From Dehalococcoidia bacterium (GTDB lineage Bacteria > Chloroflexota > Dehalococcoidia > Lucifugimonadales > CAUZJF01): DNA of 64,000 nucleotides. The translations under genes were made by a program, and so were the position numbers. Below, piece after piece: positions 1,601 to 43,746 of the stretch (position 1 is its first letter; the number at the start of each line of letters is the position of its first letter). The stretch is taken from the NCBI GenBank assembly GCA_965248605.1, contig CBDFJV010000005.1, forward strand, positions 36,355 through 100,354. Reading direction: 5' to 3'. Below the pieces are notes generated by a model, which saw only the letters and a program-made list of their open reading frames with translations, was not told where the DNA came from and made no database searches.

Positions 1601-2599
1601 ATGCGTTCTGGTATACAGTACCCGCACACAGCGAGGAGGCCCGTTTTGGCGATATTCCTTACCGAAGGCGACGTCAACCAACTGCTCACCATGGACATAG
1701 CCCTGGAGGCGGTCAAGGAGGGGTTCAGACATCAGGCGGCAGGCACCGCGGACAACAGCCGGCGCTCCCGGCTTCGAATCGAAGGCGGTTTCTTTAACTT
1801 CATGGCCGCGGCCGCGCCTGGCATGGGCGTGATGGGCCAGAAGGCCTATGCCGCCGTAAGGGGCGGACTCAGCCACTTCTACGTGCAACTCTACAGCTCC
1901 AAAGACGGCGAGTTGCTGGCCGTTTTCGAGGCATCGGACATGGGAAAGGTCCGCACCGGAGCGGCAAGCGGCGTAGCGACCAAGTACATGGCGAGACCCG
2001 ACGCCCGGACGGTGGGCATCATCGGCTCCGGCTACCAGGCGCGCACCCAGCTTGAGGCGATGTGCCGCGTCCGCGACATCGTCAGCGCGAAGGTCTTCAG
2101 TCGCAAGCCTGAGCGCCGGCAGAAGTTCGCCGACGAGATGAGCGCGAAGCTGGGCATCGACATATCCGTCTCCGACAGCGCGGAGGCGTGCGTTGCAGAC
2201 GCGGACATCGTGGTCACCATCACGACGTCGTCGGCGCCCATCCTAGAGGGCGCGTGGCTCAGTCCCGGCACCCACGTCAACGCAGCAGGGGCCAACCACT
2301 GGATGCGCCGCGAGATCGACGACGAGACGGTGAGGAGTGCAGGGACCATCGTGGCCGACGACGTCGAGCAGGCGAAGATCGAGTGTGGCGACCTGATGCA
2401 GCCAATCGAGCGAGGCTTGCTACGGTGGGACGACGTGCACGACCTCCACGAGATAGTGGGAGCCGCGCCGGGACGAACGGACGCCGAGGAGATAACGCTG
2501 TTCGCGTCTCAGGGCATGGCCCTGGAGGACATCGCGGTCGGCGAAAGGCTCTACAAGCTAGCGAGGGAACAGGGCGTTGGGACCGAGCTACCGCTGTAG
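1601..2599 (+). CDS. ornithine cyclodeaminase / mu-crystallin family protein
   Basis: 332 aa. Family-typical N-terminus (LTEGDVNQLLTMDIALEAVKEGF) and Rossmann motif GIIGSGYQARTQLEA. The exact start is uncertain and may lie some codons downstream. Confidence 0.85.
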   Translation: MRSGIQYPHTARRPVLAIFLTEGDVNQLLTMDIALEAVKEGFRHQAAGTADNSRRSRLRIEGGFFNFMAAAAPGMGVMGQKAYAAVRGGLSHFYVQLYSSKDGELLAVFEASDMGKVRTGAASGVATKYMARPDARTVGIIGSGYQARTQLEAMCRVRDIVSAKVFSRKPERRQKFADEMSAKLGIDISVSDSAEACVADADIVVTITTSSAPILEGAWLSPGTHVNAAGANHWMRREIDDETVRSAGTIVADDVEQAKIECGDLMQPIERGLLRWDDVHDLHEIVGAAPGRTDAEEITLFASQGMALEDIAVGERLYKLAREQGVGTELPL

Positions 2600-2611
2600 C
2601 TGCGTGGCGGT

Positions 2612-3007
2612 CTACAGGGGCTGCCGACCGACGAAGCCCGCGTCGACTTCGTGCCAGAAGGCGATCTCGGTCTCGCCTTCGATCCAGCAGAGGTAGACCT
2701 CGCGTCGCTCGCGTAGCGACGGGAAGTCGACCAGCCCTCGCATGACGTCTCTCACGACGATTCCGCGGGCTGTAACCGCCTCCACGCGTTCTGCCACGAG
2801 CTCGGACGCCTCCTGCAACTCGCGCCTGGCGCTGACCATTCGCTCATTTGCTTTGACGCCGCCGTTGGAGCGCATCCGCACGTCCAGGTCGTCCATCTCT
2901 TGGGTAAGCGAGGCTAGCTGCTCGCGCGCCGGCGCGATCTCACGGAAGGTCTCCGCGAGCCACGGGACCAGCTCCTGCGCCTGTTCGAGAGTGAAATATC
3001 GGTCCAT
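2612..3007 (-). CDS. DUF2203-family protein
   Basis: Translation from the internal ATG at 3007 (MDRYFTLEQAQELVPWL...) matches the DUF2203 pattern as I recall it. The longer ORF to 3067 adds a non-conserved leader. Confidence 0.65.
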   Translation of the reverse strand: MDRYFTLEQAQELVPWLAETFREIAPAREQLASLTQEMDDLDVRMRSNGGVKANERMVSARRELQEASELVAERVEAVTARGIVVRDVMRGLVDFPSLRERREVYLCWIEGETEIAFWHEVDAGFVGRQPL

Positions 3008-3078
3008 AGTGGATGCTCTTGACTGTGCCGGAGAAACGTCTAGAATTGTATACTGAAGTAGCTTCACAACGACAGCGG

Positions 3079-3112
3079 CCCTTTAAGTCAGTCCCGAGAG
3101 GCTGGCAAGGCG
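3079..3112 (+). promoter_or_regulatory. PyrR-binding RNA motif (pyr leader)
   Basis: ccctttaagtcagtcccgagaggctggcaagg matches the remembered PyrR binding-loop core (A/G)GUCCAGAGAGGCU..GCAAG with one change (C for A). It lies about 60 nt upstream of pyrR. Confidence 0.6.
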
Positions 3113-3140
3113 CGAATTAGACGGCCTCGCTTGCGAGTGA

Positions 3141-4786
<1,646 letters not shown>

Positions 4787-4790
4787 GGCT

Positions 4791-5141
4791 ATGGCAACGG
4801 CGCTCCGCGAAAGGGCTACTGTGCTCGTGATTAGAGATGAGAATGTCCTGCTGGTCCGCGACGTTGGGCCGAATTACGGAATGCCGGGTGGCGGCATCGA
4901 ATCAGGAGAATCGGCTACCGATGCGGCTATCAGAGAGCTCCACGAGGAAACCGGCCTCAAGGCGAAGAAGACGGAGTACATGTTCACCTGGGAAAGCAGC
5001 ATCAACCGGCACCGTGCTATCCGCGTTGAGACCGAAGGCGACGTAGAAATGGGGCTCGGAATCAGCGACTACACGTGGTGGGACCGGAAGGCCGCTCTCC
5101 CGTTGTACCCTCACGTCGAAGCGATACTGAAGAGGCTGTAA
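4791..5141 (+). CDS. NUDIX hydrolase
   Basis: Nudix box GGGIESGESATDAAIRELHEETGL. Lies between pyrB and pyrC. Confidence 0.85.
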   Translation: MATALRERATVLVIRDENVLLVRDVGPNYGMPGGGIESGESATDAAIRELHEETGLKAKKTEYMFTWESSINRHRAIRVETEGDVEMGLGISDYTWWDRKAALPLYPHVEAILKRL

Positions 5142-5145
5142 CAGT

Positions 5146-6504
5146 ATGAGCCAACCGCGCCCGATACTTGTCCAGGGCGGACATATCGTCGACCCGGCTC
5201 AGGGCGTAGACCGCAAGGGCGATCTACTCATCGAAGACGGCGTCGTAAGCGAACTCGACCCTGACATGGCATCGGGGCCGCCCGTCGGCCCGCAGACCAT
5301 CGACGCCGAAGGGCTCGTGGTATGCCCCGGCTTCATCGACGTCCACTGCCACCTGCGTGAGCCCGGCTTCGAATACAAGGAGACCATCGCCACAGGGACT
5401 CGGGCGGCGGCGGCCGGAGGGTTCACGACGGTGTGCGCCATGCCCAACACCAACCCTGTGATGGACTCGCGCTCGGTCGTCGAGTTCGTAATGGGGAGGG
5501 CCCGCGAGCAGGGCGTCGTGCGGGTGCTGCCTATCGGGGCCGTCACGCGAGGCAGCCAGGGCCGCGAGTTGGCCGAGATGGGGGAGCTGGCTGAGGCCGG
5601 CGCTATCGGCTTCAGCGACGATGGTCACCCGGTGTCGGACCCGAACATCATGCGGCAGGCGCTGAGCTACGCTTCCGGGTTGGGTCTGCCGATCATCAAC
5701 CACTGCGAGGTCCACGAGCTATCGACGGGCGGCGTCATGAACGAGGGGTGGGTTTCGAACCGGCTGGGCCTCAAGGGCATACCGAACTCCGCCGAGGAGA
5801 TCATGGTGGCGCGCGATATCGAGCTCGCCGAGCTGACTGGAGGCCGTCTCCACGTCGCCCACGCCAGCACCGCCGGAACGTTGACGCTTGTGCGTGAAGC
5901 GAAGGGGAAGGGCCTGAACGTCACGTGCGAGGTCACTCCCCACCACCTTACCCTTAGCGACGAGACGGTCATGGGTTACAGTCGCGACGGCCAGCCCTTC
6001 GAGCCGTTGACCGATTCGGCCTACGACACCAACGCCAAGGTGGCCCCGCCCCTTCGCGCCCGCAGCGACCTCGAGGCCATGGCGGAGGGACTGAAGGACG
6101 GCACGGTCGACTTCATCGCCACGGACCACGCGCCCCACGGGACCGTCGAGAAGCAGTGCACCTTCGACGAAGCTGCCAACGGCATAAGCGTGCTCGAGAC
6201 GGCGCTGGGCTCGCTGATGGGTCTCGTGGACGCCGGAGACACTGCGCTGCCGCTGCTTGTCGAGAAGCTGACGGCGGCTCCCGCAAAGTTCCTCGGGATC
6301 GACAGCGGCTCCCTCAAACAGGGCTCGCCCGCCGACGTGACGCTCTTCGACCCCGATGCCGAGTGGGCCGTCGACCCTGAACGGTTCGTCTCGAAGGGCA
6401 AGAACACTCCCCTCGCAGGCGCTACGCTTAGAGGACGCGTGGTTGCGACTATCGTGGCTGGCGAGGTCGTTTATGATGGGCGGGAGGAGTCGCGAGAACT
6501 ATAG
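5146..6504 (+). CDS. pyrC: dihydroorotase
   Basis: DVHCHLREPG metal-binding motif and ATDHAPH. 452 aa. Confidence 0.95.
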   Translation: MSQPRPILVQGGHIVDPAQGVDRKGDLLIEDGVVSELDPDMASGPPVGPQTIDAEGLVVCPGFIDVHCHLREPGFEYKETIATGTRAAAAGGFTTVCAMPNTNPVMDSRSVVEFVMGRAREQGVVRVLPIGAVTRGSQGRELAEMGELAEAGAIGFSDDGHPVSDPNIMRQALSYASGLGLPIINHCEVHELSTGGVMNEGWVSNRLGLKGIPNSAEEIMVARDIELAELTGGRLHVAHASTAGTLTLVREAKGKGLNVTCEVTPHHLTLSDETVMGYSRDGQPFEPLTDSAYDTNAKVAPPLRARSDLEAMAEGLKDGTVDFIATDHAPHGTVEKQCTFDEAANGISVLETALGSLMGLVDAGDTALPLLVEKLTAAPAKFLGIDSGSLKQGSPADVTLFDPDAEWAVDPERFVSKGKNTPLAGATLRGRVVATIVAGEVVYDGREESREL

Positions 6505-17933: not shown

Positions 17934-17946
17934 TGGGTAGATGAGG

Positions 17947-18077
17947 CTAGTAGACCGAAATCTTTGAAATGAGGGGTAGCCGAGATTGGCGTGCTACGAC
18001 GACAGGGCGGGTTTCAAACCCGCCCCTACCAAGCCGTAACCTCAGAACCCTTCAATACTAGGATGTTGGACCACTAG
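17947..18077 (+). mobile_element. 131-bp IS630-derived MITE, copy 1
   Basis: Ends ctagtagaccgaaatc... / ...gatgttggaccactag are imperfect TIRs related to the IS630 TIRs. TA flanks. Internal hairpin gggcgggtttcaaacccgccc. Identical by manual alignment to copies at 27119-27249 (inverted) and 40300-40430. Confidence 0.8.
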
Positions 18078-27099: not shown

Positions 27100-27118
27100 G
27101 CTCTTCTCCCGATTTCAG

Positions 27119-27249
27119 CTAGTGGTCCAACATCCTAGTATTGAAGGGTTCTGAGGTTACGGCTTGGTAGGGGCGGGTTTGAAACCCGCCCTGTCGTCGT
27201 AGCACGCCAATCTCGGCTACCCCTCATTTCAAAGATTTCGGTCTACTAG
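27119..27249 (-). mobile_element. 131-bp IS630-derived MITE, copy 2 (inverted)
   Basis: The reverse complement is identical to copy 1 by manual alignment. TA flanks. Confidence 0.8.
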
Positions 27250-27565
27250 CTTTCGGCAGCGAAAGGGTAGCCGAGGGCGCTTGCCGTGTCCAGCGTCCAG
27301 CCGGCCTCTGCAAACGCCTGAGACACCTACTGCTTTTGACCACACCTTTGGATAGTAGCGCGGGGTCCGAAAAATTTACTCTGTTGCAAACCGTAGCAAA
27401 CCGATGCATTCATATCTGAGGGTTGCAACACCTGGGCGGGGGAATGCAACAGGTAGGTGGAGGTGGGTACGGGGTACGTGTAGTCGATTTCGGGGGTCGT
27501 CTGACGGATTGTTGCTCTCCTCAGGACAGACCTGCGGGGTCCCGTTCCTCAACGCATCATAGCAC

Positions 27566-36228: not shown

Positions 36229-39200
36229 TTGTTTACCCACCTCCACAATCATACCGAGTACAGCTTCCTCCTGGACGGGCTGAGCCGCCTCGAAACCGTA
36301 GTTGGACGTGCAAAAGAGCTGGGCATGGACTCCCTCGCGATCACCGACCACGGGGGTCTATACGGCGTCATCGACTTCTACCGGACCGCCAGGGAAGCCG
36401 GAATCAAGCCGATCATCGGGTGCGAGATGTACGTCGCGCCGAACAGTCGGCACGACCGCAATCCGGGCGACAAAACGTCCTTTCACCTGACCGTGCTCTG
36501 CAAGAACATCGAAGGCTATCGCAACCTCGTCAAGCTGGTCACGGCCGCCCACCTCGAAGGCTTCTACTACAAACCCAGGGTTGACCGCGAGATCCTACAG
36601 CAATATCACGAAGGCCTGATCGTACTTTCGGGATGTCCCAGCGGCGAGGTGCCTTCGCTTATTTCGCAAGGACGGATGGACGAGGCCCGGTCTGCCGCGA
36701 CCTGGTACAAGGAACTCTTCGGCGACTACTACCTCGAGCTCATGCGCCACGACGGAGTCGACGGGCTGCCAGCCATCAACGAAGGTCTTGTCGAGCTTCA
36801 CCGGGAGCTAGGCATCGACGTGGTCGCGACAAACGACAGCCACTACGTGCACCAGGAAGACGCGCCTATCCAGGACGTGTTGATCTGTATCCACACGAAC
36901 ACGAATGTAAACGACGAAAAACGCCTGAAGATGGACGACGACTCCTACTACCTCAAGAGCGCTGACGAGATGGAGTCGCTCTTCGCGGACGTGCCCGAAG
37001 CTATATCCAACAGCCAGGCAATAGCCGACAAGTGCAATCTCGAGCTCGATTTCTCCCAGCTGCACATGCCTGAATACCCGGTGCCGGACGGCCTCACGCC
37101 CGACGACTACCTGCGTCAGCTCTGTGAGGAAGGGTTGCAGAGCCGCTTCGAGAGGGTGACGGAGGTCGAAAGAGGCAGGCTGTCATACGAGCTCGACGTA
37201 ATCCGCCAGACAAAATACGCCAACTACTTCCTAGTGGTTTGGGACATCGCGCGCTTCGTTAGGGAACACGACATCTACTTCGCGGTGCGAGGAAGCGCTG
37301 CCGGAAGCATCGTCCTCTACTGCCTGGGCGTGACCGACGTGAACCCGCTGCAGTACGAGATCGTTTTCGAGCGGTTTCTGAACGTCGAGCGTCGAGAGAT
37401 GCCCGACATCGACATGGACTTCCAGGACGACCGGCGGGAAGAGGTCCTGAACTACGTCGTCGAAAAGTACGGCGGTGACCACGTGGCGCAGATAATCACG
37501 TTCGGGACCCTCGGGGCCCGGGCCTCCATTCGCGACGTCGGACGGGCGCTGGCGATGCCCTACGGCGACGTCGACCAGATTGCTCGAATGATCCCCAATA
37601 GGCTCAACATGACCCTCGAAAAGGCCATGGGTGAGAACCCCGAACTGGAGGAGGCGTACGGCGCCGACGAGGGCACCAAGAAGCTGGTCGACATCGCGCA
37701 AAGGCTCGAAGGAATTACCAGGCACGCCAGCACTCACGCGGCAGGAGTGGTTATCTCGCAGGAGCCCCTCGAGACCTACGTACCCCTCCAAAAGCCGACG
37801 CGAGGCGACGACGACAGCATTTCGATGACCCAGTACGCCATGGAGCCCATCGCCGCCCTCGGGCTGCTCAAGATGGACTTCCTTGGCCTCGTCAATCTCA
37901 CGGTCCTGGCCAAAGCCCGCGATCTGATCGATCGGACGCGAGGTGTTCGCCTCAATCTCAAGGACATCCCCCTCGACGACACCAAGACCTTCGAGCTCCT
38001 CTCAGCGGGACAGACGGTTGGCGTGTTCCAGATGGAGGGGGCGGGCATGACCAACTACATACAGGACCTGAAGCCAACGACGATAAACGACGTAGCGTCG
38101 ATGATCGCCCTCTACCGTCCGGGGCCCATGGAGCACATCGGCACGTTCATCGACGCGAAGCATGGACGGGCGGAGGCCCAGTACGTCCACGAATCGCTGA
38201 AAGGCATTCTCGAGGAGACGTATGGAGTCATCGTCTACCAGGACCAGGTGTTCCTGATCGCCCAGGCATTCGCAGGCTACTCGCTCGGCGAGGCGGACGT
38301 GCTCAGGAAGGCCATGGGCAAGAAGATCCCCGAGATTATGGAAAAGGAGCGCGACAAGTTCCTTAGTGGGGTGATCGCGCAGGGTCACTCTCGGGAGCTG
38401 GCGGAGAAAGTTTTCGCGCTGATCGAGCCGTTCGCCGGCTACGGCTTCCCGAAGGCCCACGCGGTTAGCTACGGCCTCATCTCGTACTGGACTGCTTACC
38501 TGAAGGCGAACTTCCCGGAAGAGTACATGGTGTGTCTCCTCAACGCCTACGTTGAGAACACCGAGAAGCTTGGCGGATCGGTCGCCGAGTGCCGGAGGCT
38601 CGGGATTGAGGTGATGCCGCCCGACGTTAACTACAGCCACGTCGAGTTCTCGGTGGAGCGGCAGAACGATGGCGGGACCGCCGTGCGGGTCGGGCTCGCA
38701 TCGGTCAAGAACGTCGGCGAAGGGGCGGTGACGCCGGTCATCGAGGCGAGAGAGAAAGAGGGGCCGTTCGCGTCGATCGAGCAAATGTGCAGGGTCGCCG
38801 ACCTCCGGGGCCTTAACCGGAAGTCGCTAGAGAGCTTGATCAAGGCCGGGGCTTTCGACCAGTTCGGCGACCGAGGCGCACTGCTAGAGGTCGTGGACAG
38901 GGTGCTGTCCTTGGCCCAGAGCGAGGCTAGCCTCCGCGAGTCCGACCAGACCTCTATGTTCGACCTTTTCGGAGAGTCGGTGCCGACTCCTCTGGCGCAA
39001 ATCGATCTTCCGGCCGGCCAGACATCCAAGAGCGAGAAAAAGGTCTGGGAGACCGAGCTGTTAGGCGTGAATTTCGCCGACAACCCTCTGCTGAATCTCC
39101 CGGCGTCCGATGGCGACACAAAGGCGATCATGTCCCGGAGTGAAGTCAGAGCCGACATGAACGGCGAGAAGATCGAGCTCAGGGGCCAGGTCGCATCGGT

Positions 39201-39870
39201 GAGCCACAGGTACACCAAGGACCAGAAGCCCTACTCGAGCGCCAACATCGCGCTCCTGGACGGCGACATCGACGTATTCGTCTGGCAGAACGTGCTCGAA
39301 AAGACCCAGGGCTTGTGGGAGCCCAGCAAGCTGCTTACGATCGCAGGCCGGGTGAGAGCGAGGGATGACAGGGTCAGTATCTCCTGTCTCAACGCGTCGG
39401 AGTTCAAGGTGAAGGAAGACGGCGAGTCGCCGGACGAGAAGCCCGCTCCAGAGCCGGCTGCGCCACCTGCCGCGAGCCCATTGTCCATCTCTCCAAACGG
39501 CGTCTCACCCCCGGCCCAGGAGCCGCGGGCCGACACTGCGCCTTCTCCACCTCCCGTACAGACTCCGGCAGAAACGTATCCGCGCCAGAGACGACTGCTG
39601 CTCCGTATCCGGGAGACCGACCAGCCCGACGACGACCATCGCTTGATGGACGACCTGAAACAGCTGCTTCTGGGGTACCAGGGTGACGACTCCGTCGGAC
39701 TCGAGATCGCGTCGAACGGGCACCTGGTGACGCTGGACTGGGCTCTGGTGCGGGTAAACATATGCCCGCCGCTACAAGAGGCGCTCGAAGAGGTAATCGG
39801 CCCTTCCGGAAGCATCTCGATCGCGGACGAGCCCTCCAACGGCGCCGTATCCCGGAACGGCGTGGCTTAA
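36229..39870 (+). CDS. dnaE: DNA polymerase III alpha subunit
   Basis: PHP domain FTHLHNHTEYSFLLDG. Polymerase core GLLKMDFLGL. OB fold. Pro/Ala-rich linker before the C-terminal segment. Confidence 0.95.
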   Translation: MFTHLHNHTEYSFLLDGLSRLETVVGRAKELGMDSLAITDHGGLYGVIDFYRTAREAGIKPIIGCEMYVAPNSRHDRNPGDKTSFHLTVLCKNIEGYRNLVKLVTAAHLEGFYYKPRVDREILQQYHEGLIVLSGCPSGEVPSLISQGRMDEARSAATWYKELFGDYYLELMRHDGVDGLPAINEGLVELHRELGIDVVATNDSHYVHQEDAPIQDVLICIHTNTNVNDEKRLKMDDDSYYLKSADEMESLFADVPEAISNSQAIADKCNLELDFSQLHMPEYPVPDGLTPDDYLRQLCEEGLQSRFERVTEVERGRLSYELDVIRQTKYANYFLVVWDIARFVREHDIYFAVRGSAAGSIVLYCLGVTDVNPLQYEIVFERFLNVERREMPDIDMDFQDDRREEVLNYVVEKYGGDHVAQIITFGTLGARASIRDVGRALAMPYGDVDQIARMIPNRLNMTLEKAMGENPELEEAYGADEGTKKLVDIAQRLEGITRHASTHAAGVVISQEPLETYVPLQKPTRGDDDSISMTQYAMEPIAALGLLKMDFLGLVNLTVLAKARDLIDRTRGVRLNLKDIPLDDTKTFELLSAGQTVGVFQMEGAGMTNYIQDLKPTTINDVASMIALYRPGPMEHIGTFIDAKHGRAEAQYVHESLKGILEETYGVIVYQDQVFLIAQAFAGYSLGEADVLRKAMGKKIPEIMEKERDKFLSGVIAQGHSRELAEKVFALIEPFAGYGFPKAHAVSYGLISYWTAYLKANFPEEYMVCLLNAYVENTEKLGGSVAECRRLGIEVMPPDVNYSHVEFSVERQNDGGTAVRVGLASVKNVGEGAVTPVIEAREKEGPFASIEQMCRVADLRGLNRKSLESLIKAGAFDQFGDRGALLEVVDRVLSLAQSEASLRESDQTSMFDLFGESVPTPLAQIDLPAGQTSKSEKKVWETELLGVNFADNPLLNLPASDGDTKAIMSRSEVRADMNGEKIELRGQVASVSHRYTKDQKPYSSANIALLDGDIDVFVWQNVLEKTQGLWEPSKLLTIAGRVRARDDRVSISCLNASEFKVKEDGESPDEKPAPEPAAPPAASPLSISPNGVSPPAQEPRADTAPSPPPVQTPAETYPRQRRLLLRIRETDQPDDDHRLMDDLKQLLLGYQGDDSVGLEIASNGHLVTLDWALVRVNICPPLQEALEEVIGPSGSISIADEPSNGAVSRNGVA

Positions 39871-40007: not shown

Positions 40008-40088
40008 CTGCCCCTACGCGTGAAGGCAAGCCAGTTGCTTTCGTATGTTCGGCCCGCCCCGCAGACGTAAGGTTGCTCACCACGAACC
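40008..40088 (+). repeat. 81-bp direct repeat, copy A
   Basis: ctgcccctacgcgtgaaggcaagccagttgctttcgtatgttcggcccgccccgcagacgtaaggttgctcaccacgaacc. About 8 mismatches to 41853-41933. Confidence 0.7.
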
Positions 40089-40299
40089 CGCGGTGAGCTG
40101 TTTTAGTCGCCGCACCGCCGTAGAAAGACTGAACGGGCGGGTCAAGGCGCACCGTAGATTGAACTCTGTATCTGTAAGGGTTAGACCGCGGGCCAGGGTG
40201 ATGACCCACGTACTTCTCGCAACAAGCACATACCACGGCCCAAGTGGTAGCCACGGGGAGTCGCGCCTCGGTGAGGCCAATAAAAGATGCGGCCTAAGG
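40045..40299 (+). pseudogene. C-terminal remnant of a DDE transposase gene
   Basis: ...RRTAVERLNGRVKAHRRLNSVSVRVRPRARVMTHVLLA... resembles the conserved C-terminus (R..vE..f..lK...gl......rG..kv......la) of IS4/IS5-like transposases. No N-terminal part is present, and the frame runs into MITE copy 3. Confidence 0.4.
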
Positions 40300-40430
40300 C
40301 TAGTAGACCGAAATCTTTGAAATGAGGGGTAGCCGAGATTGGCGTGCTACGACGACAGGGCGGGTTTCAAACCCGCCCCTACCAAGCCGTAACCTCAGAA
40401 CCCTTCAATACTAGGATGTTGGACCACTAG
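40300..40430 (+). mobile_element. 131-bp IS630-derived MITE, copy 3
   Basis: Identical to copy 1 by manual alignment. Inserted at the centre of the palindrome aagatgcggcctaagg / ccttaagccgcatctt. Confidence 0.8.
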
Positions 40431-40602
40431 CCTTAAGCCGCATCTTGGTCTATACTTGTTTGAAACCGGTGCGGATGCCCTGGTCTGGTGCTGGTACCAC
40501 CTTCCAGGTAGCCAATTCCTCTTCCTAAGAAGCTCGGCTATTTCAATTCTAGCCGGGCTAGGCATCGTTGTCAATACGCTCGGCAGAAAAGGAGCGGTAA
40601 CG

Positions 40603-41337
40603 ATGGGCGCTCTGTCAGGCGGACAGATTGTTGAGTTGGTTACCAAGGGCGAGTTAGTCATAGACCCATTTGATGAAAAACTTGTTCAACCTGCCACTTA
40701 CGACCTTCGCTTGGGGGATAAGATACTGGCCAGCCCCCTTGGCCCTGTAGAACATGGGGGGCCTGTTCAGCTTAGTCGTGACAGACCTAGCTATGATGTC
40801 ATCACCGGTCAAATGGTCTCTGTGAAATCGGCGGAATACATAGAGTTGCCGCTTACCGTTGCTAGCGGTAGCTTCGGGATACGATCCCACTACGCGAAGC
40901 TTGGCTTTATCGCCTTTGGGGGCGTTCAATTGGACCCCGGATTCCATGGTGTTGTCATAATGAATCTCCAAAACGTGGGTCCCGAACCAATACCACTCAA
41001 GATGAATGACCCCTTTTTTACCGTCCAGTTTGAGCGCCTCGAACAGCCAGCAAGCAAAGGATACGACGGACCGAACCAAGGCCAACGCGATTTCCCCGAT
41101 GACCTTATAAGGTTCATCGAATCGGCGCGAACCACTAGTCTTGCCGAGATTCCGGGGCTCAGACGCGAAATCGCACGCCTTAGCGTGCAGCTTGAAGCAC
41201 TGACTGACAAGCTGCCTGCGCCGGAGAACGACTTTGAGTTGAAAGAAGAGGTCATTGACGCCCTTCACCGCTCTTCTACGAAGCCCCGAGACTCATTGAT
41301 TACTCTTGACGAGATGCGCTCTCGACTAGCTGAGTGA
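40603..41337 (+). CDS. dCTP deaminase/dUTPase-fold protein with ~80-aa C-terminal extension
   Basis: GGAG 8 nt before the ATG. GGQIVELVTKGELVIDPF, QPATYDLRLG, QLDPGFHGVVIMNLQN, YDGPNQGQ, then a helical tail ...LRREIARLSVQLEALTDKL...LITLDEMRSRLAE. Confidence 0.75.
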   Translation: MGALSGGQIVELVTKGELVIDPFDEKLVQPATYDLRLGDKILASPLGPVEHGGPVQLSRDRPSYDVITGQMVSVKSAEYIELPLTVASGSFGIRSHYAKLGFIAFGGVQLDPGFHGVVIMNLQNVGPEPIPLKMNDPFFTVQFERLEQPASKGYDGPNQGQRDFPDDLIRFIESARTTSLAEIPGLRREIARLSVQLEALTDKLPAPENDFELKEEVIDALHRSSTKPRDSLITLDEMRSRLAE

Positions 41338-41347
41338 ACCTCCAAAC

Positions 41348-41614
41348 ATGGCACTGTTGTTCGACGACGATGCTTTCGCTGGTGTTTCTTCAAAGGCTGC
41401 CCAACGCATGACAGACAAGGCTGAGTGGATATGGAAGCACAGAACCGAGGTTCCACATACAGCCCTTCGCGAAGACCTCAATCCTTATCTTTGTTGGCGT
41501 GTCGGAGACTATCGCCTGATCTACACGTATGACAAAGAGCCTGATGAAATGATTGTCCGACTCGGCGGCCACCGCCGAGACATCTACAAGAAAGCCCCCA
41601 AACTCCTTCCCTAG
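41348..41614 (+). CDS. RelE/ParE-superfamily toxin
   Basis: 88 aa. ...CWRVGDYRLIYTYDKEPDEMIVRLGGHRRDIYKK. Starts 10 nt after the stop of the Dcd-like gene. Confidence 0.75.
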   Translation: MALLFDDDAFAGVSSKAAQRMTDKAEWIWKHRTEVPHTALREDLNPYLCWRVGDYRLIYTYDKEPDEMIVRLGGHRRDIYKKAPKLLP

Positions 41615-41852
41615 CTAGCAAGAGTTCATCTGAACCCCCTTCTCTCCTCCGCCGGTCGAATTTAACGCTCCAGGGTTTCGATCCTTGCTGCGAGGCCCGT
41701 ATTTTCCGCTCGCCCTTGAGCCCTATCGAGGGGCGCCCCTATGGTTAGACAAGCTACCGAGTAACTGGTGAGCGCGAACGGGTCGGGGCCATAATGAGTA
41801 GGCGGACGGGCGCGTACGATGCGTCCCTACGGCCGTTAACGGGGACGAAATC

Positions 41853-41933
41853 CTGCCCCTACGCATGGAGGCAAGCCCGGTGCTTTCATATGTTCAGCCC
41901 GCCCCGCGGACGTAAAGTTGCTCACCACGAACC
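41853..41933 (+). repeat. 81-bp direct repeat, copy B
   Basis: Aligns with 40008-40088. Embedded in a REP-rich spacer. Confidence 0.7.
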
Positions 41934-42078: not shown

Positions 42079-43746
42079 ATGCCTGAACGCATCCTCGTCG
42101 CCGTCGCCTGGCCGTACGCCAATGGCTCGATCCACCTAGGACAGGCGGCAGGCGCGTATATCCCCGCCGACATCTTCGCTCGATACCATCGCCTCAAAGG
42201 AAACGAGGTGTTGATGGTGTCCGGCAGCGACTCCCACGGCACGCCCGTCACACTGGAGGCCGAGAAGCGGGGCGTCTCACCTGAGGAGGTTTTCGGACAG
42301 TATCACGAAGAGTTCTTGGACAACTGGGAGCGCTTGGGGATCAGCTTCGACCTCTTCACCTCCACCCACACGGAAAACCACAAGGCCGTCGCTCAGGACA
42401 TGTTCCTGAAGCTCCGGGAAAACGGCTACATTTACACGGACACGATGTCCCAGCCGTTCTGCGAGACGGACAACCGCTTCCTGGCCGACCGATACGTCGG
42501 TGGCAAGTGTCCCCACTGCGGATTCGATGGCGCCAAAGGCGACCAGTGCGACAACTGCGGCCGCACCCTCGACCCCGAAGAGCTCATCGACATTGTCTGC
42601 TTGCTCTGCGGCAATACGCCTGTGTTCAGGGAGACCGAGCACTTCTTCTTCAAGCTAACCGCCTTCGAAGAGCGCCTCAAGGAGTGGGTGGCGCAGCAGG
42701 AGCACTGGCGTCCGAACGTGCGGAACCTGTCGTTGGGATGGCTCGAAGGCGGGCTTCAGAACAGCGCCATCACGAGGGACATCAATTGGGGCATTCCGGT
42801 CCCCGTCGATGGCTATGAAGGCAAGCGCATATACGTCTGGTTCGAGGCCGTGATGGGATACCTGTCCGCGTCCATCGAGTGGGCGAAGTCGACGGGCGAC
42901 GAATCGAAGTGGCAGGACTTCTGGCAGAAGGACTGCCGCGCCTACTACTTCATGGGCAAGGACAATACCCCGTTTCACACCATCCGCTGGCCGGCTATGC
43001 TGATGGGGTACGGCGGTCTCAACCTGCCCTACGACGTGCCCGCCAACGAGTACCTACAGCTCGAAGGTCTCAAGCTGTCTACCAGCAGGAATTGGGCTGT
43101 CTGGCTACCGGACTACCTCGACGAATTCGAGCCCGACCCGCTGCGGTACGCCATCGCGGCCAATATGCCGGAAACCAGCGACTCCGACTTCTCGTGGCGA
43201 GAGTACGTCCGCCGGAACAACGACGAGCTGGTCGCCACGTACGGCAATCTCGCTCACCGCGTCTTGACCATGTCCCACCGCAACTTCGAGGGACGTGTAC
43301 CGGAGCGCGGCGAGCTCGACGAGCAAGACAACCAGCTGCTCGACGAGGCCGCCAACCGGTTCGACGAGACCGGCGAGAACATCGGTCTCTGCCACTTCCG
43401 CGCCGGATTGGGCTCTGCGATGGCCCTTGCACAGGCCGCGAACCGGTACCTGGACCAGAAGTCGCCGTGGCATTCGATCAAGACCGATCGGGGGCAGGCG
43501 GCCACAACGCTATGGGTCGGACTGGCGGTCATCAACTGCCTCAAGACGGCCCTGTACCCCTTCTTGCCGTTCAGCTCCCAAAAGCTGCACGGAATGCTCG
43601 GCTTCGACGACGATCTCGCTACCCATGGATGGACCTGGGACCGAGACGCCATCGAGTCCGGCAAAGAGCTGCGGGTCCCGGAGCCGCTGTTCACCAAGCT
43701 GGACGAAGCCGTAATCGAACGGGAAACTCAACGAATCGGTGTGTAG
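42079..43746 (+). CDS. metG: methionine--tRNA ligase
   Basis: AWPYANGSIHLGQ (HIGH-type), zinc knuckles CPHCG...CDNCG, KLSTSRN (KMSKS-type). Confidence 0.95.
   Translation: MPERILVAVAWPYANGSIHLGQAAGAYIPADIFARYHRLKGNEVLMVSGSDSHGTPVTLEAEKRGVSPEEVFGQYHEEFLDNWERLGISFDLFTSTHTENHKAVAQDMFLKLRENGYIYTDTMSQPFCETDNRFLADRYVGGKCPHCGFDGAKGDQCDNCGRTLDPEELIDIVCLLCGNTPVFRETEHFFFKLTAFEERLKEWVAQQEHWRPNVRNLSLGWLEGGLQNSAITRDINWGIPVPVDGYEGKRIYVWFEAVMGYLSASIEWAKSTGDESKWQDFWQKDCRAYYFMGKDNTPFHTIRWPAMLMGYGGLNLPYDVPANEYLQLEGLKLSTSRNWAVWLPDYLDEFEPDPLRYAIAANMPETSDSDFSWREYVRRNNDELVATYGNLAHRVLTMSHRNFEGRVPERGELDEQDNQLLDEAANRFDETGENIGLCHFRAGLGSAMALAQAANRYLDQKSPWHSIKTDRGQAATTLWVGLAVINCLKTALYPFLPFSSQKLHGMLGFDDDLATHGWTWDRDAIESGKELRVPEPLFTKLDEAVIERETQRIGV

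Follow-up and report, generated by a model that had tools for sequence, protein, structure and literature searches.

Type II antitoxins are generally viewed as a DNA-binding domain joined to a toxin-binding tail, and what triggers the release of type II toxins is a long-standing question. In relBE-type modules (RelB-RelE, M. tuberculosis RelBE1 and RelBE2, T. thermophilus RelE), the antitoxin gene comes first and is followed, within a few nt, by the gene for a RelE-fold toxin of 85-95 aa. Here we analyse a toxin-antitoxin (TA) candidate with the same gene order, found in a stretch of 64,000 nt (hereafter the window) from a Dehalococcoidia bacterium (assembly GCA_965248605.1, contig CBDFJV010000005.1, positions 36,355 to 100,354). 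All coordinates below are those of the window and refer to its + strand unless a locus or another strand is named. The candidate shares with relBE-type modules a mobile, patchy distribution and a partly disordered helical C-terminus of the antitoxin. However, where those antitoxins have a ribbon-helix-helix (RHH) or Phd/YefM DNA-binding dimer, the 244-aa protein of the window has a 165-aa barrel of the dUTPase superfamily. In addition, its tail lacks detectable homology to RelB or YefM, and the expected stoichiometry would be trimer-based. On balance, we favour a mobile type II-like TA operon in which the tail would neutralise RelE and the head, probably a trimer, would bind a deoxynucleotide and may gate the release of the toxin. 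Taken separately, the assignment of the pair as toxin and antitoxin appears quite probable, while the nucleotide-gating step is put forward tentatively, as a possibility somewhat short of an even chance.

The gene for the 244-aa DCD/dUTPase-fold antitoxin candidate lies at 40603-41337, with an ATG start at 40603, a stop codon at 41335-41337 and a GGAG 8 nt ahead of the ATG. A longer open reading frame (ORF) from TTG 40456 was set aside; the homologues begin at MGxLSG and give no support to the TTG start. An earlier model-made description of the locus, based on the letters alone (hereafter the sequence-only reading), had listed both ORFs of the pair, a series of peptide motifs within them and a 10-nt gap between them, and all of these were recovered. 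It had also divided the first protein into a Dcd-like part of about 165 aa and a helical extension of about 80 aa, a division on which Pfam, AlphaFold2 (AF2) and Foldseek agree. The Pfam family DCD (PF22769) matches residues 4-145 (E=7.5e-16) and is the sole domain in the Pfam scan of the protein. The AF2 model, built from 115 homologues, has an overall predicted local distance difference test score (pLDDT) of 86.8. Barrel residues 1-165 score above 90, and the barrel is followed by helices at residues 166-173, 182-203, 215-225 and 235-243 with a pLDDT of 66-78. According to the model, the Foldseek matches and conservation, the head (residues 1-165, 40603-41097) consists of a dUTPase-superfamily beta-barrel with a C-terminal lid, Y154-G156-Q159-Q161. 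The top Foldseek matches are Pyrococcus P45 (9ln0) and the Thermococcus pacificus dUTPase (8y1w), with target TM-scores of 0.88-0.90, and the next ranks are taken by bifunctional DCD-DUT enzymes and E. coli Dcd. The two archaeal DCD-like dUTPases are the best matches in both sequence and structure (E ~1e-14) and have the RSSxAR, DPG and YxGxYQG motifs in common with the window protein; in contrast to the latter, which adds a linker, a heptad helix, a tail and a toxin operon, they are stand-alone proteins of ~155 aa.

Behind a spacer of 10 nt (41338-41347), which has the look of operon-like coupling, the gene for an 88-aa RelE-family toxin occupies 41348-41614, as supported by profiles, AF2 and Foldseek. 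The second gene had earlier been described as RelE/ParE, of which the RelE half stood and the ParE half did not. PF05016 (ParE_toxin) reaches 22.6 bits against a cut-off of 23, and ParE complexes appear in the Foldseek list only from rank 32 down. Meanwhile, a profile of 17 toxin orthologues matches M. tuberculosis RelE2 Rv2866 (3.5e-8), T. thermophilus RelE, RelE1, YoeB and archaeal RelE, and the AF2 model of the toxin (pLDDT 87) finds its best Foldseek matches among RelE structures (2khe, 9g12, 3bpq, 4fxh and 3g5o, TM-scores 0.62-0.72). Judged by these profile matches and nearest structures, the 88-aa protein is a RelE-type toxin and not a ParE gyrase poison. Residues R20, H37, R56, R76 and Y80 are invariant in the toxin family. 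Three of them, R56, R76 and Y80, lie where the profile aligns with RelE2 and T. thermophilus RelE and may correspond to R61, R81 and Y87 of E. coli RelE; the invariant set is consistent with an active RNase. In the public record of the source contig the toxin is annotated as 68 aa from M21 (P0121), which omits 41348-41407. The first 20 residues are conserved in homologues, and the model assigns them to strand beta-1 and the beginning of helix alpha-1, suggesting that the 88-aa form is the likely product.

The pairing of the two genes extends well beyond the window. The family of the 244-aa protein comprises more than 250 database proteins, nearly all of 241-246 aa (at least 253 of them of 243-246 aa), and the tail is therefore a conserved part of the protein. 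The sequence-only reading had placed the Dcd-like protein in the slot of an antitoxin and had proposed a survey of gene neighbourhoods as a check, and the survey bears this placement out. A RelE homologue lies directly downstream on the same strand in all 12 tail-bearing reference-genome loci, whose hosts are Chloroflexota/Dehalococcoidia metagenome-assembled genomes (MAGs) and two 'delta proteobacterium' MAGs. Among metagenome contigs it is found in 72 of 78 loci, the six exceptions being contigs that end within 240 nt past the stop codon of the DCD-like gene, so that the pairing holds in 72/72 metagenome loci with enough downstream DNA and in 84/84 checkable loci combined. This is far beyond chance. 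The gaps between the homologous genes are mostly 1 to 21 nt, and overlaps are seen for about one in ten called ORFs. Clustering of all flanking ORFs of 83 homologous modules revealed no conserved third gene, from which it follows that no conventional small antitoxin had been overlooked around the pair, in keeping with the absence of one that the sequence-only reading had noted; the only recurrent neighbour is a transposase, present in 12 of these loci on either side. In a mirror-tree comparison the distances of heads and of toxins are correlated (r=0.82), suggesting that the two genes travel together, and the value for the tail given the head is 0.21 (partial Mantel test); both figures speak of co-inheritance only, and not of contact.

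The fold of the head raises the question of its chemistry. The catalytic Glu that defines a dCTP deaminase is E138 in the E. coli enzyme and E129 in that of M. tuberculosis. In a HMMER alignment to 4a6a, the codon at this position in the window gene is AAT (40963-40965), encoding N121. Thus, E129 of the M. tuberculosis DCD-DUT stands opposite N121 and the Glu is lost, while S102 and D119 are retained as S95 and D111, and R106 corresponds to K99 in the window protein and to Arg in most homologues. The C-terminal lid motif, Y154-x-G156-x-x-Q159-x-Q161, is retained as well. Among 125 diverse representatives, the residues that contact the nucleotide are kept: the S95 column holds Ser in 106 and Thr in 11, and conservation is similarly visible at R/K99 (109), D111 (119), G116 (124), N124 (123), Y154 (102, and W or F in 18 more), G156 (98) and Q159 (96). 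The column of the catalytic Glu is occupied by G, S, T, P or N family-wide, with Glu in only two of 149 representatives inspected, so the replacement suspected from the single sequence holds across the family. The archaeal DCD-like dUTPases 9ln0 and 8y1w also have a non-acidic residue, Met, at this position. With its Glu replaced, the family has given up deamination, and selection keeps the deoxynucleotide pocket, the lid and the heptad helix. The equivalog profile for dCTP deaminase, TIGR02274, scores 76.6 bits, under its curated cut-off of 92.8. On the missing Glu and this score, the window protein does not qualify as a dCTP deaminase. For a dUTPase the case could go either way; the features of a DCD-like dUTPase of the archaeal P45 type, i.e. 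the fold, the absence of the Glu and the conserved pocket and lid, are all present. With the Dcd and DCD-DUT enzymes (E. coli 1xs1, M. tuberculosis 2qxx, M. jannaschii 1ogh), which are regulated by dTTP, the protein has in common the fold, the Ser/Arg phosphate-binding pair, the Asp of DPG and the C-terminal lid, and it differs from them in its Asn for Glu, its sub-cut-off TIGR02274 score and its extra C-terminal modules.

These findings bear directly on one of the explanations offered by the sequence-only reading, namely a two-effector abortive-infection module in which the head would deplete dCTP by deamination and RelE would stop translation. The name of the fold and the adjacency of the genes are what suggest it. 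However, the catalytic Glu is absent here and in nearly the whole family, the deaminase profile stays under its cut-off, the dCTP deaminases known from defence combine a kinase domain with a different fold that depends on zinc, and RelE would be left without an antitoxin. We regard this explanation as extremely improbable.

The pocket bears in a different way on the possibility that the head is still a working enzyme. In that case, an active dUTPase or dNTP (deoxynucleoside triphosphate) pyrophosphatase serving sanitation would be fused to an antitoxin peptide, RelE would addict the cell to the enzyme gene, and the head would be uncoupled from the control of the toxin. The nearest structures, 9ln0 and 8y1w, belong to true dUTPases in which the deaminase Glu is missing as well, and the pocket, Asp111 and the lid residues are kept as in active enzymes. 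However, the head and linker are joined elsewhere to tails for at least RelE, PIN and HEPN-like proteins or to a terminal transmembrane helix (see below), a pattern more in line with a regulatory module than with an enzyme of housekeeping; moreover, several copies occur per genome in a mobile context, and conservation extends to the linker and heptad helix that separate the lid from the tail. Such an addiction fusion seems to us unlikely.

The part of the protein that follows the lid can be divided into three segments. The linker (residues 166-185, 41098-41157), delimited by conservation, consists of a short helix and an ARTTSLAEIP motif. In an alignment of 115 sequences S179, A181, I183, P184 and R187 are invariant, and the motif is still recognisable in distant relatives with transmembrane tails. 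Next comes a heptad-repeat helix (residues 186-204, 41158-41214; AF2 helix 182-203), a predicted coiled-coil stalk, in which the representatives aligned at the a/d positions L186, I190, L193, L197, L200 and L204 carry hydrophobic residues; between one third and two thirds of all representatives have a gap at these columns. Placed on the three-fold axis of a trimer like that of dUTPases, this helix could assemble into a trimeric coiled-coil, both the trimer and the coiled-coil being predictions. The C-terminal tail (residues 205-244, 41215-41334), with the motif LPxPDxGLEL and the last two modelled helices, is the proposed RelE-neutralising segment; it is conserved within the RelE-paired subfamily and has a pLDDT of 66-78 in the monomer model. 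Because dUTPase-superfamily proteins are known as obligate trimers, the head might be thought of as a trimerisation platform that replaces the dimeric DNA-binding domain, with vestigial nucleotide binding. The lack of a DNA-binding domain in the antitoxin would suit such a role. However, S95, R/K99, D111, Y154, G156 and Q159 are kept at about 30% overall identity while the Glu is freely replaced, and since a scaffold alone would not preserve both pocket and lid, a purely structural head is disfavoured and seems improbable.

In the TA operon that we favour, the RelE-type toxin would be expected to act as a ribosome-dependent mRNA endonuclease, and tail residues 205-244 would bind and neutralise it in the manner of antitoxin C-termini. 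The head would form a trimer presenting three tails, with the linker and heptad helix (residues 166-204) probably making up a trimeric stalk, and, without the deaminase Glu, it would bind a deoxynucleotide through the retained pocket and lid. The C-terminal lid of Dcd and dUTPase enzymes becomes ordered when it covers the bound nucleotide. In the window protein the lid runs straight into the linker and stalk, which is why we propose that nucleotide occupancy might set the geometry or stability of the tail and, with it, the choice between holding RelE and letting it go. Shifts in the dNTP pool, such as those caused by a phage infection or by replication stress, would in this way liberate RelE and bring translation to a halt. 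Sensing of the nucleotide pool by the head is plausible given the residues that it keeps.

Several results weigh against this picture. The tail has no detectable homology to any solved antitoxin or Pfam family: neither Pfam scans of five tails (from four types, and a consensus of the family) nor a profile search of the PDB started from the RelE-type tail gave a match. Homology to RelB, VapB or HicB is thus not established, and the names 'VapB-like' and 'HicB-like' used for tails are descriptive labels only. No HTH (helix-turn-helix), RHH or AbrB domain was found in the 244-aa protein by Pfam, NCBIfam-type profiles or the AF2 model; of the features of a type II system, adjacent co-oriented genes and a toxin domain are present, the DNA-binding autoregulatory domain is absent, and classical autoregulation is left unexplained. 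The conserved pocket fits an active dUTPase or dNTP pyrophosphatase, with the chemistry itself as the point, equally well as it fits sensing. Mutual information with average product correction, computed for antitoxin against toxin columns in 81 pairs (Neff 37), gave no excess of couplings between tail and toxin; the top 30 pairs fall in the head (18), linker (7) and tail (5), a distribution like the background, and the scan is uninformative. In addition, PADLOC, which has no model for the module, gave no defence-system match, and a consensus scan found no sigma-70-like promoter on the + strand.

Relatives of the window protein show that the C-terminal tail type changes together with the toxin family (RelE, PIN or HEPN-like). 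The window protein and its subfamily have the tail LPDPDEGLEL...RKxL and RelE as partner, and a variant represented by locus L015 has a tail ending in '...KNLGLxW' and a partner that scores as RelE_StbE / ParE_toxin. At locus L005, a second paralogue of 260 aa, situated 900 nt upstream of a RelE-type module, has the tail ...LLGGWPDDDNFEEFL... and is overlapped by a PIN-domain gene (PF01850, 4e-12). Protein P0004 (locus L135), with 76% identity to the window protein across the 80% of the query that aligns, has a tail like that of the L005 paralogue and is likewise paired with a PIN gene; both tails contain the motif GxWPxxxDFDxF. P0356 is grouped with these two on account of being 57% identical to P0141 across 98% of its length, and it too is followed by a PIN gene. 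P0279 (298 aa) is directly followed by a 118-aa HEPN-like protein (L137, 3400-3756), for which PF05168 scores 20.5 bits against a cut-off of 22. In P0321 (334 aa) and at L028 (346 aa) the tail looks HicB-like and the partner is a conserved gene of 88-91 aa without a known family, while P0380 (307 aa) and the protein at L048 (380 aa) have a winged-helix tail and an overlapping 76-aa gene, also without a known family. The winged helix-turn-helix (wHTH) occurs only in this different tail variant, and not in the window protein.

Some of these loci deserve a remark of their own. On the Chloroflexota contig of L005 the modules stand in tandem, a DCD-like gene with PIN at 1994-3195 and, 470 nt on, a DCD-like gene with RelE at 3669-4675. 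At L135, a frameshift divides the PIN gene after P0004 into two parts (4768-4965 and 4998-5168), reflecting either a decaying toxin or an indel error of long-read assembly. The 88-91-aa partner (L139, 3509-3775; L028, ~3840-4116) always follows DCD-like proteins whose tail looks HicB-like. Its consensus is KHDxxVxRxxGKxIxxFGIxRGSKxQxHDxI...QCREFRECxLSxExYIEIL; it has no Pfam or NCBIfam match, and its sequence makes it a candidate for a new toxin family. The 76-aa ORF (L141, 3393-3623; L048, 5843-6073) overlaps the end of the wHTH-tailed DCD-like genes.

An exhaustive profile search over 1.84 billion cluster representatives yielded 76 representatives with a cut at E<=1e-30; at E<=1e-10 the number rises to 2,932, among them ordinary Dcd enzymes. 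The entire RelE-tailed subfamily corresponds to one cluster representative, and the others have the same head and linker with different C-termini, of which a single transmembrane helix is the commonest. Distant relatives of this kind (L016-L043, e.g. L016 4995-5672; P0133, P0145, P0158-P0160 and many others; 30-37% identity) are ~215-235 aa long with the same head, linker and heptad helix, and occur in Proteobacteria, Acidobacteria, Nitrospirota and sponge symbionts. Two such genes viewed in context have no partner gene, their neighbours being insertion sequence elements or a Fic gene; from their sequences, they may represent a single-gene, membrane-acting variant. In delta-proteobacterial MAGs (L011, 5001-5633; L013, 4965-5633), proteins of 210-222 aa end after the heptad helix (...LREGRFTE), with no toxin gene downstream. 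Larger architectures with a DCD-like domain were also observed (L049, 4479-5909; L050, 4350-5843; P0147, P0151, P0153 and P0168): one combines an N-terminal P-loop region, the DCD-like domain and a coiled-coil in 476-497 aa, and the other, of ~455 aa, has two stretches matching the head profile and a transmembrane helix at its end.

The exchange of partners can be used to weigh a further explanation, in which the antitoxin would be an enzyme similar to those of type VII systems. MNT, which covalently inactivates HEPN, sets the precedent. By analogy, the tail of the DCD-like protein would tether the toxin and the dUTPase-type site would transfer a deoxynucleoside monophosphate onto a toxin side chain, which would take the place of water in the attack on the alpha-phosphate. 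The active-site architecture that attacks the alpha-phosphate is retained, and a HEPN-like protein occurs among the partners, which may be read, speculatively, in its favour. However, a transferase chemistry has no known precedent in the dUTPase-type fold, the RelE, PIN and HEPN-like partners are structurally unrelated, and the transmembrane-tailed relatives have no partner to modify. This explanation therefore appears very improbable.

Viewed over the whole family, the head may also be given a broader role, that of a widespread, hyperpromiscuous, trimeric deoxynucleotide sensor whose dNTP-triggered lid closure holds or releases the attached toxin tails or transmembrane helix. The ligand might be a specific dNTP, or one made by a phage or damaged, and the signal would pass through the linker and coiled-coil. 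Tails would cage RelE, PIN, HEPN-like or as yet unnamed toxins, and a transmembrane helix could act on the membrane directly. We consider this generalisation doubtful.

The module itself lies in a 2.2-kb islet between dnaE (36229-39870) and metG (42079-43746), and its two co-oriented ORFs are inside the islet. The lower G+C content that had been noted by eye was confirmed by computation: 0.52-0.54 over 40250-41750 vs 0.60-0.63 in the flanks. An 81-bp direct repeat brackets the islet, with its left copy at 40008-40088 and its right copy, 90% identical to the left, at 41853-41933. Directly upstream of the module is an element resembling a miniature inverted-repeat transposable element (MITE), with 47-nt inverted arms (40284-40446, no strand assigned). 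Its ~140 bp at 40289-40431 have other copies in the window at 17944-18077 (100%) and 27118-27260 (98%), and the element is recently active in the source genome. Of the islet borders proposed by the sequence-only reading, the MITE copies and the 81-bp repeat were thus confirmed; the 'transposase remnant' (40045-40320) has no Pfam family match, and its identity is unverified. The sole similarity found for it is a 31-aa stretch (40093-40185) with 58% identity to sequence upstream of a degraded module in locus L014, so that part of the 'remnant' may belong to the mobile unit. The copy in L014 (4095-5781), on a Dehalococcoidia chromosome, has its DCD-like gene frameshifted after the TTSL motif. Within the islet, no tRNA gene or Rfam family was found as an integration site. 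A terminator-like hairpin and T-run (41683-41705), located by consensus scan only, follows the toxin stop by ~70 nt. On the - strand, at 40546-40574, a sigma-70-like near-consensus TTGACA-17-TAGAAT (11/12) lies just upstream of the antitoxin start and is directed away from the module. More than one paralogue of the DCD-like protein is present in several genomes. Taken together, the low-GC islet, the MITE, the direct repeats, the transposases in the flanks of homologues and the multiple paralogues place the module in a mobile context. Plasmid and phage collections gave head-only matches at ~30% identity and no full-length relatives, which fits with a family mostly confined to uncultured lineages.

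Among known systems, the dUTPase fold has a precedent as a switch. Trimeric dUTPases of staphylococcal phages derepress Stl of the Staphylococcus aureus pathogenicity islands (SaPI), and their nucleotide state and lid control partner binding. These proteins differ from that of the window in being phage-encoded and enzymatically active, and in having a repressor as partner, not a tail-tethered toxin. The 'dUTPase' system of DefensePredictor is a different one, linked to MazG-C/aGPT-Pplase. The anti-phage dCTP deaminase, which the sequence-only reading had taken as relevant background, also turns out to be something else: this enzyme (Tal et al., bioRxiv 10.1101/2021.04.26.441389), or AvcD, consists of an N-terminal kinase and a zinc-dependent cytosine-deaminase domain. 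Only the name of the substrate and the theme of nucleotide-pool defence are in common; the fold is non-homologous, the system is a single-gene effector, and the window protein has neither domain by Pfam and no PADLOC match. In the accessible literature, we found no description of this family or of a Dcd/dUTPase-fold protein as an antitoxin; the sequence-only reading, likewise, had known of no system that joins dCTP deaminases and RelE/ParE toxins. The main text of NetFlax does not mention deaminase, dUTPase or DCD, and the main texts of Makarova 2009 and Gerdes 2025 do not mention a Dcd/dUTPase-fold antitoxin.

The closest likeness in behaviour is that to Panacea (DUF4065), a hyperpromiscuous antitoxin domain which, in the NetFlax network, is combined with many unrelated toxin families (PMC8832971, PMC10440598). 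In both cases a domain on the antitoxin side is reused with many toxins and partner swapping is seen in gene neighbourhoods; the likeness is one of promiscuity, not of homology. The folds are unrelated, and the window protein has no DUF4065 by Pfam. Furthermore, in the DCD-like family specificity apparently resides in exchangeable C-terminal tails, and the head has a nucleotide pocket. A conserved small-molecule pocket of known chemistry thus takes the place of the DNA-binding domain, directly ahead of the putative toxin-binding tail, and offers a concrete and testable trigger for the release of a type II toxin, namely the state of the dNTP pool. That the head is combined with several families of toxins and with membrane anchors, chiefly among uncultured Chloroflexota but likewise among Proteobacteria, Acidobacteria, Nitrospirota and sponge symbionts, points to a sensor module of general use that annotation hides under 'dCTP deaminase'. 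The annotation should be corrected, as members of the family cannot be dCTP deaminases. If they do act as sensors in this way, they would form a new class of ligand-gated TA or abortive-infection switches that read the dNTP pool. Compared with the relBE-type modules, the nucleotide enzymes and Panacea, the locus is best described as a type II-like TA module whose antitoxin head, undescribed so far and reused widely, is probably ligand-binding.

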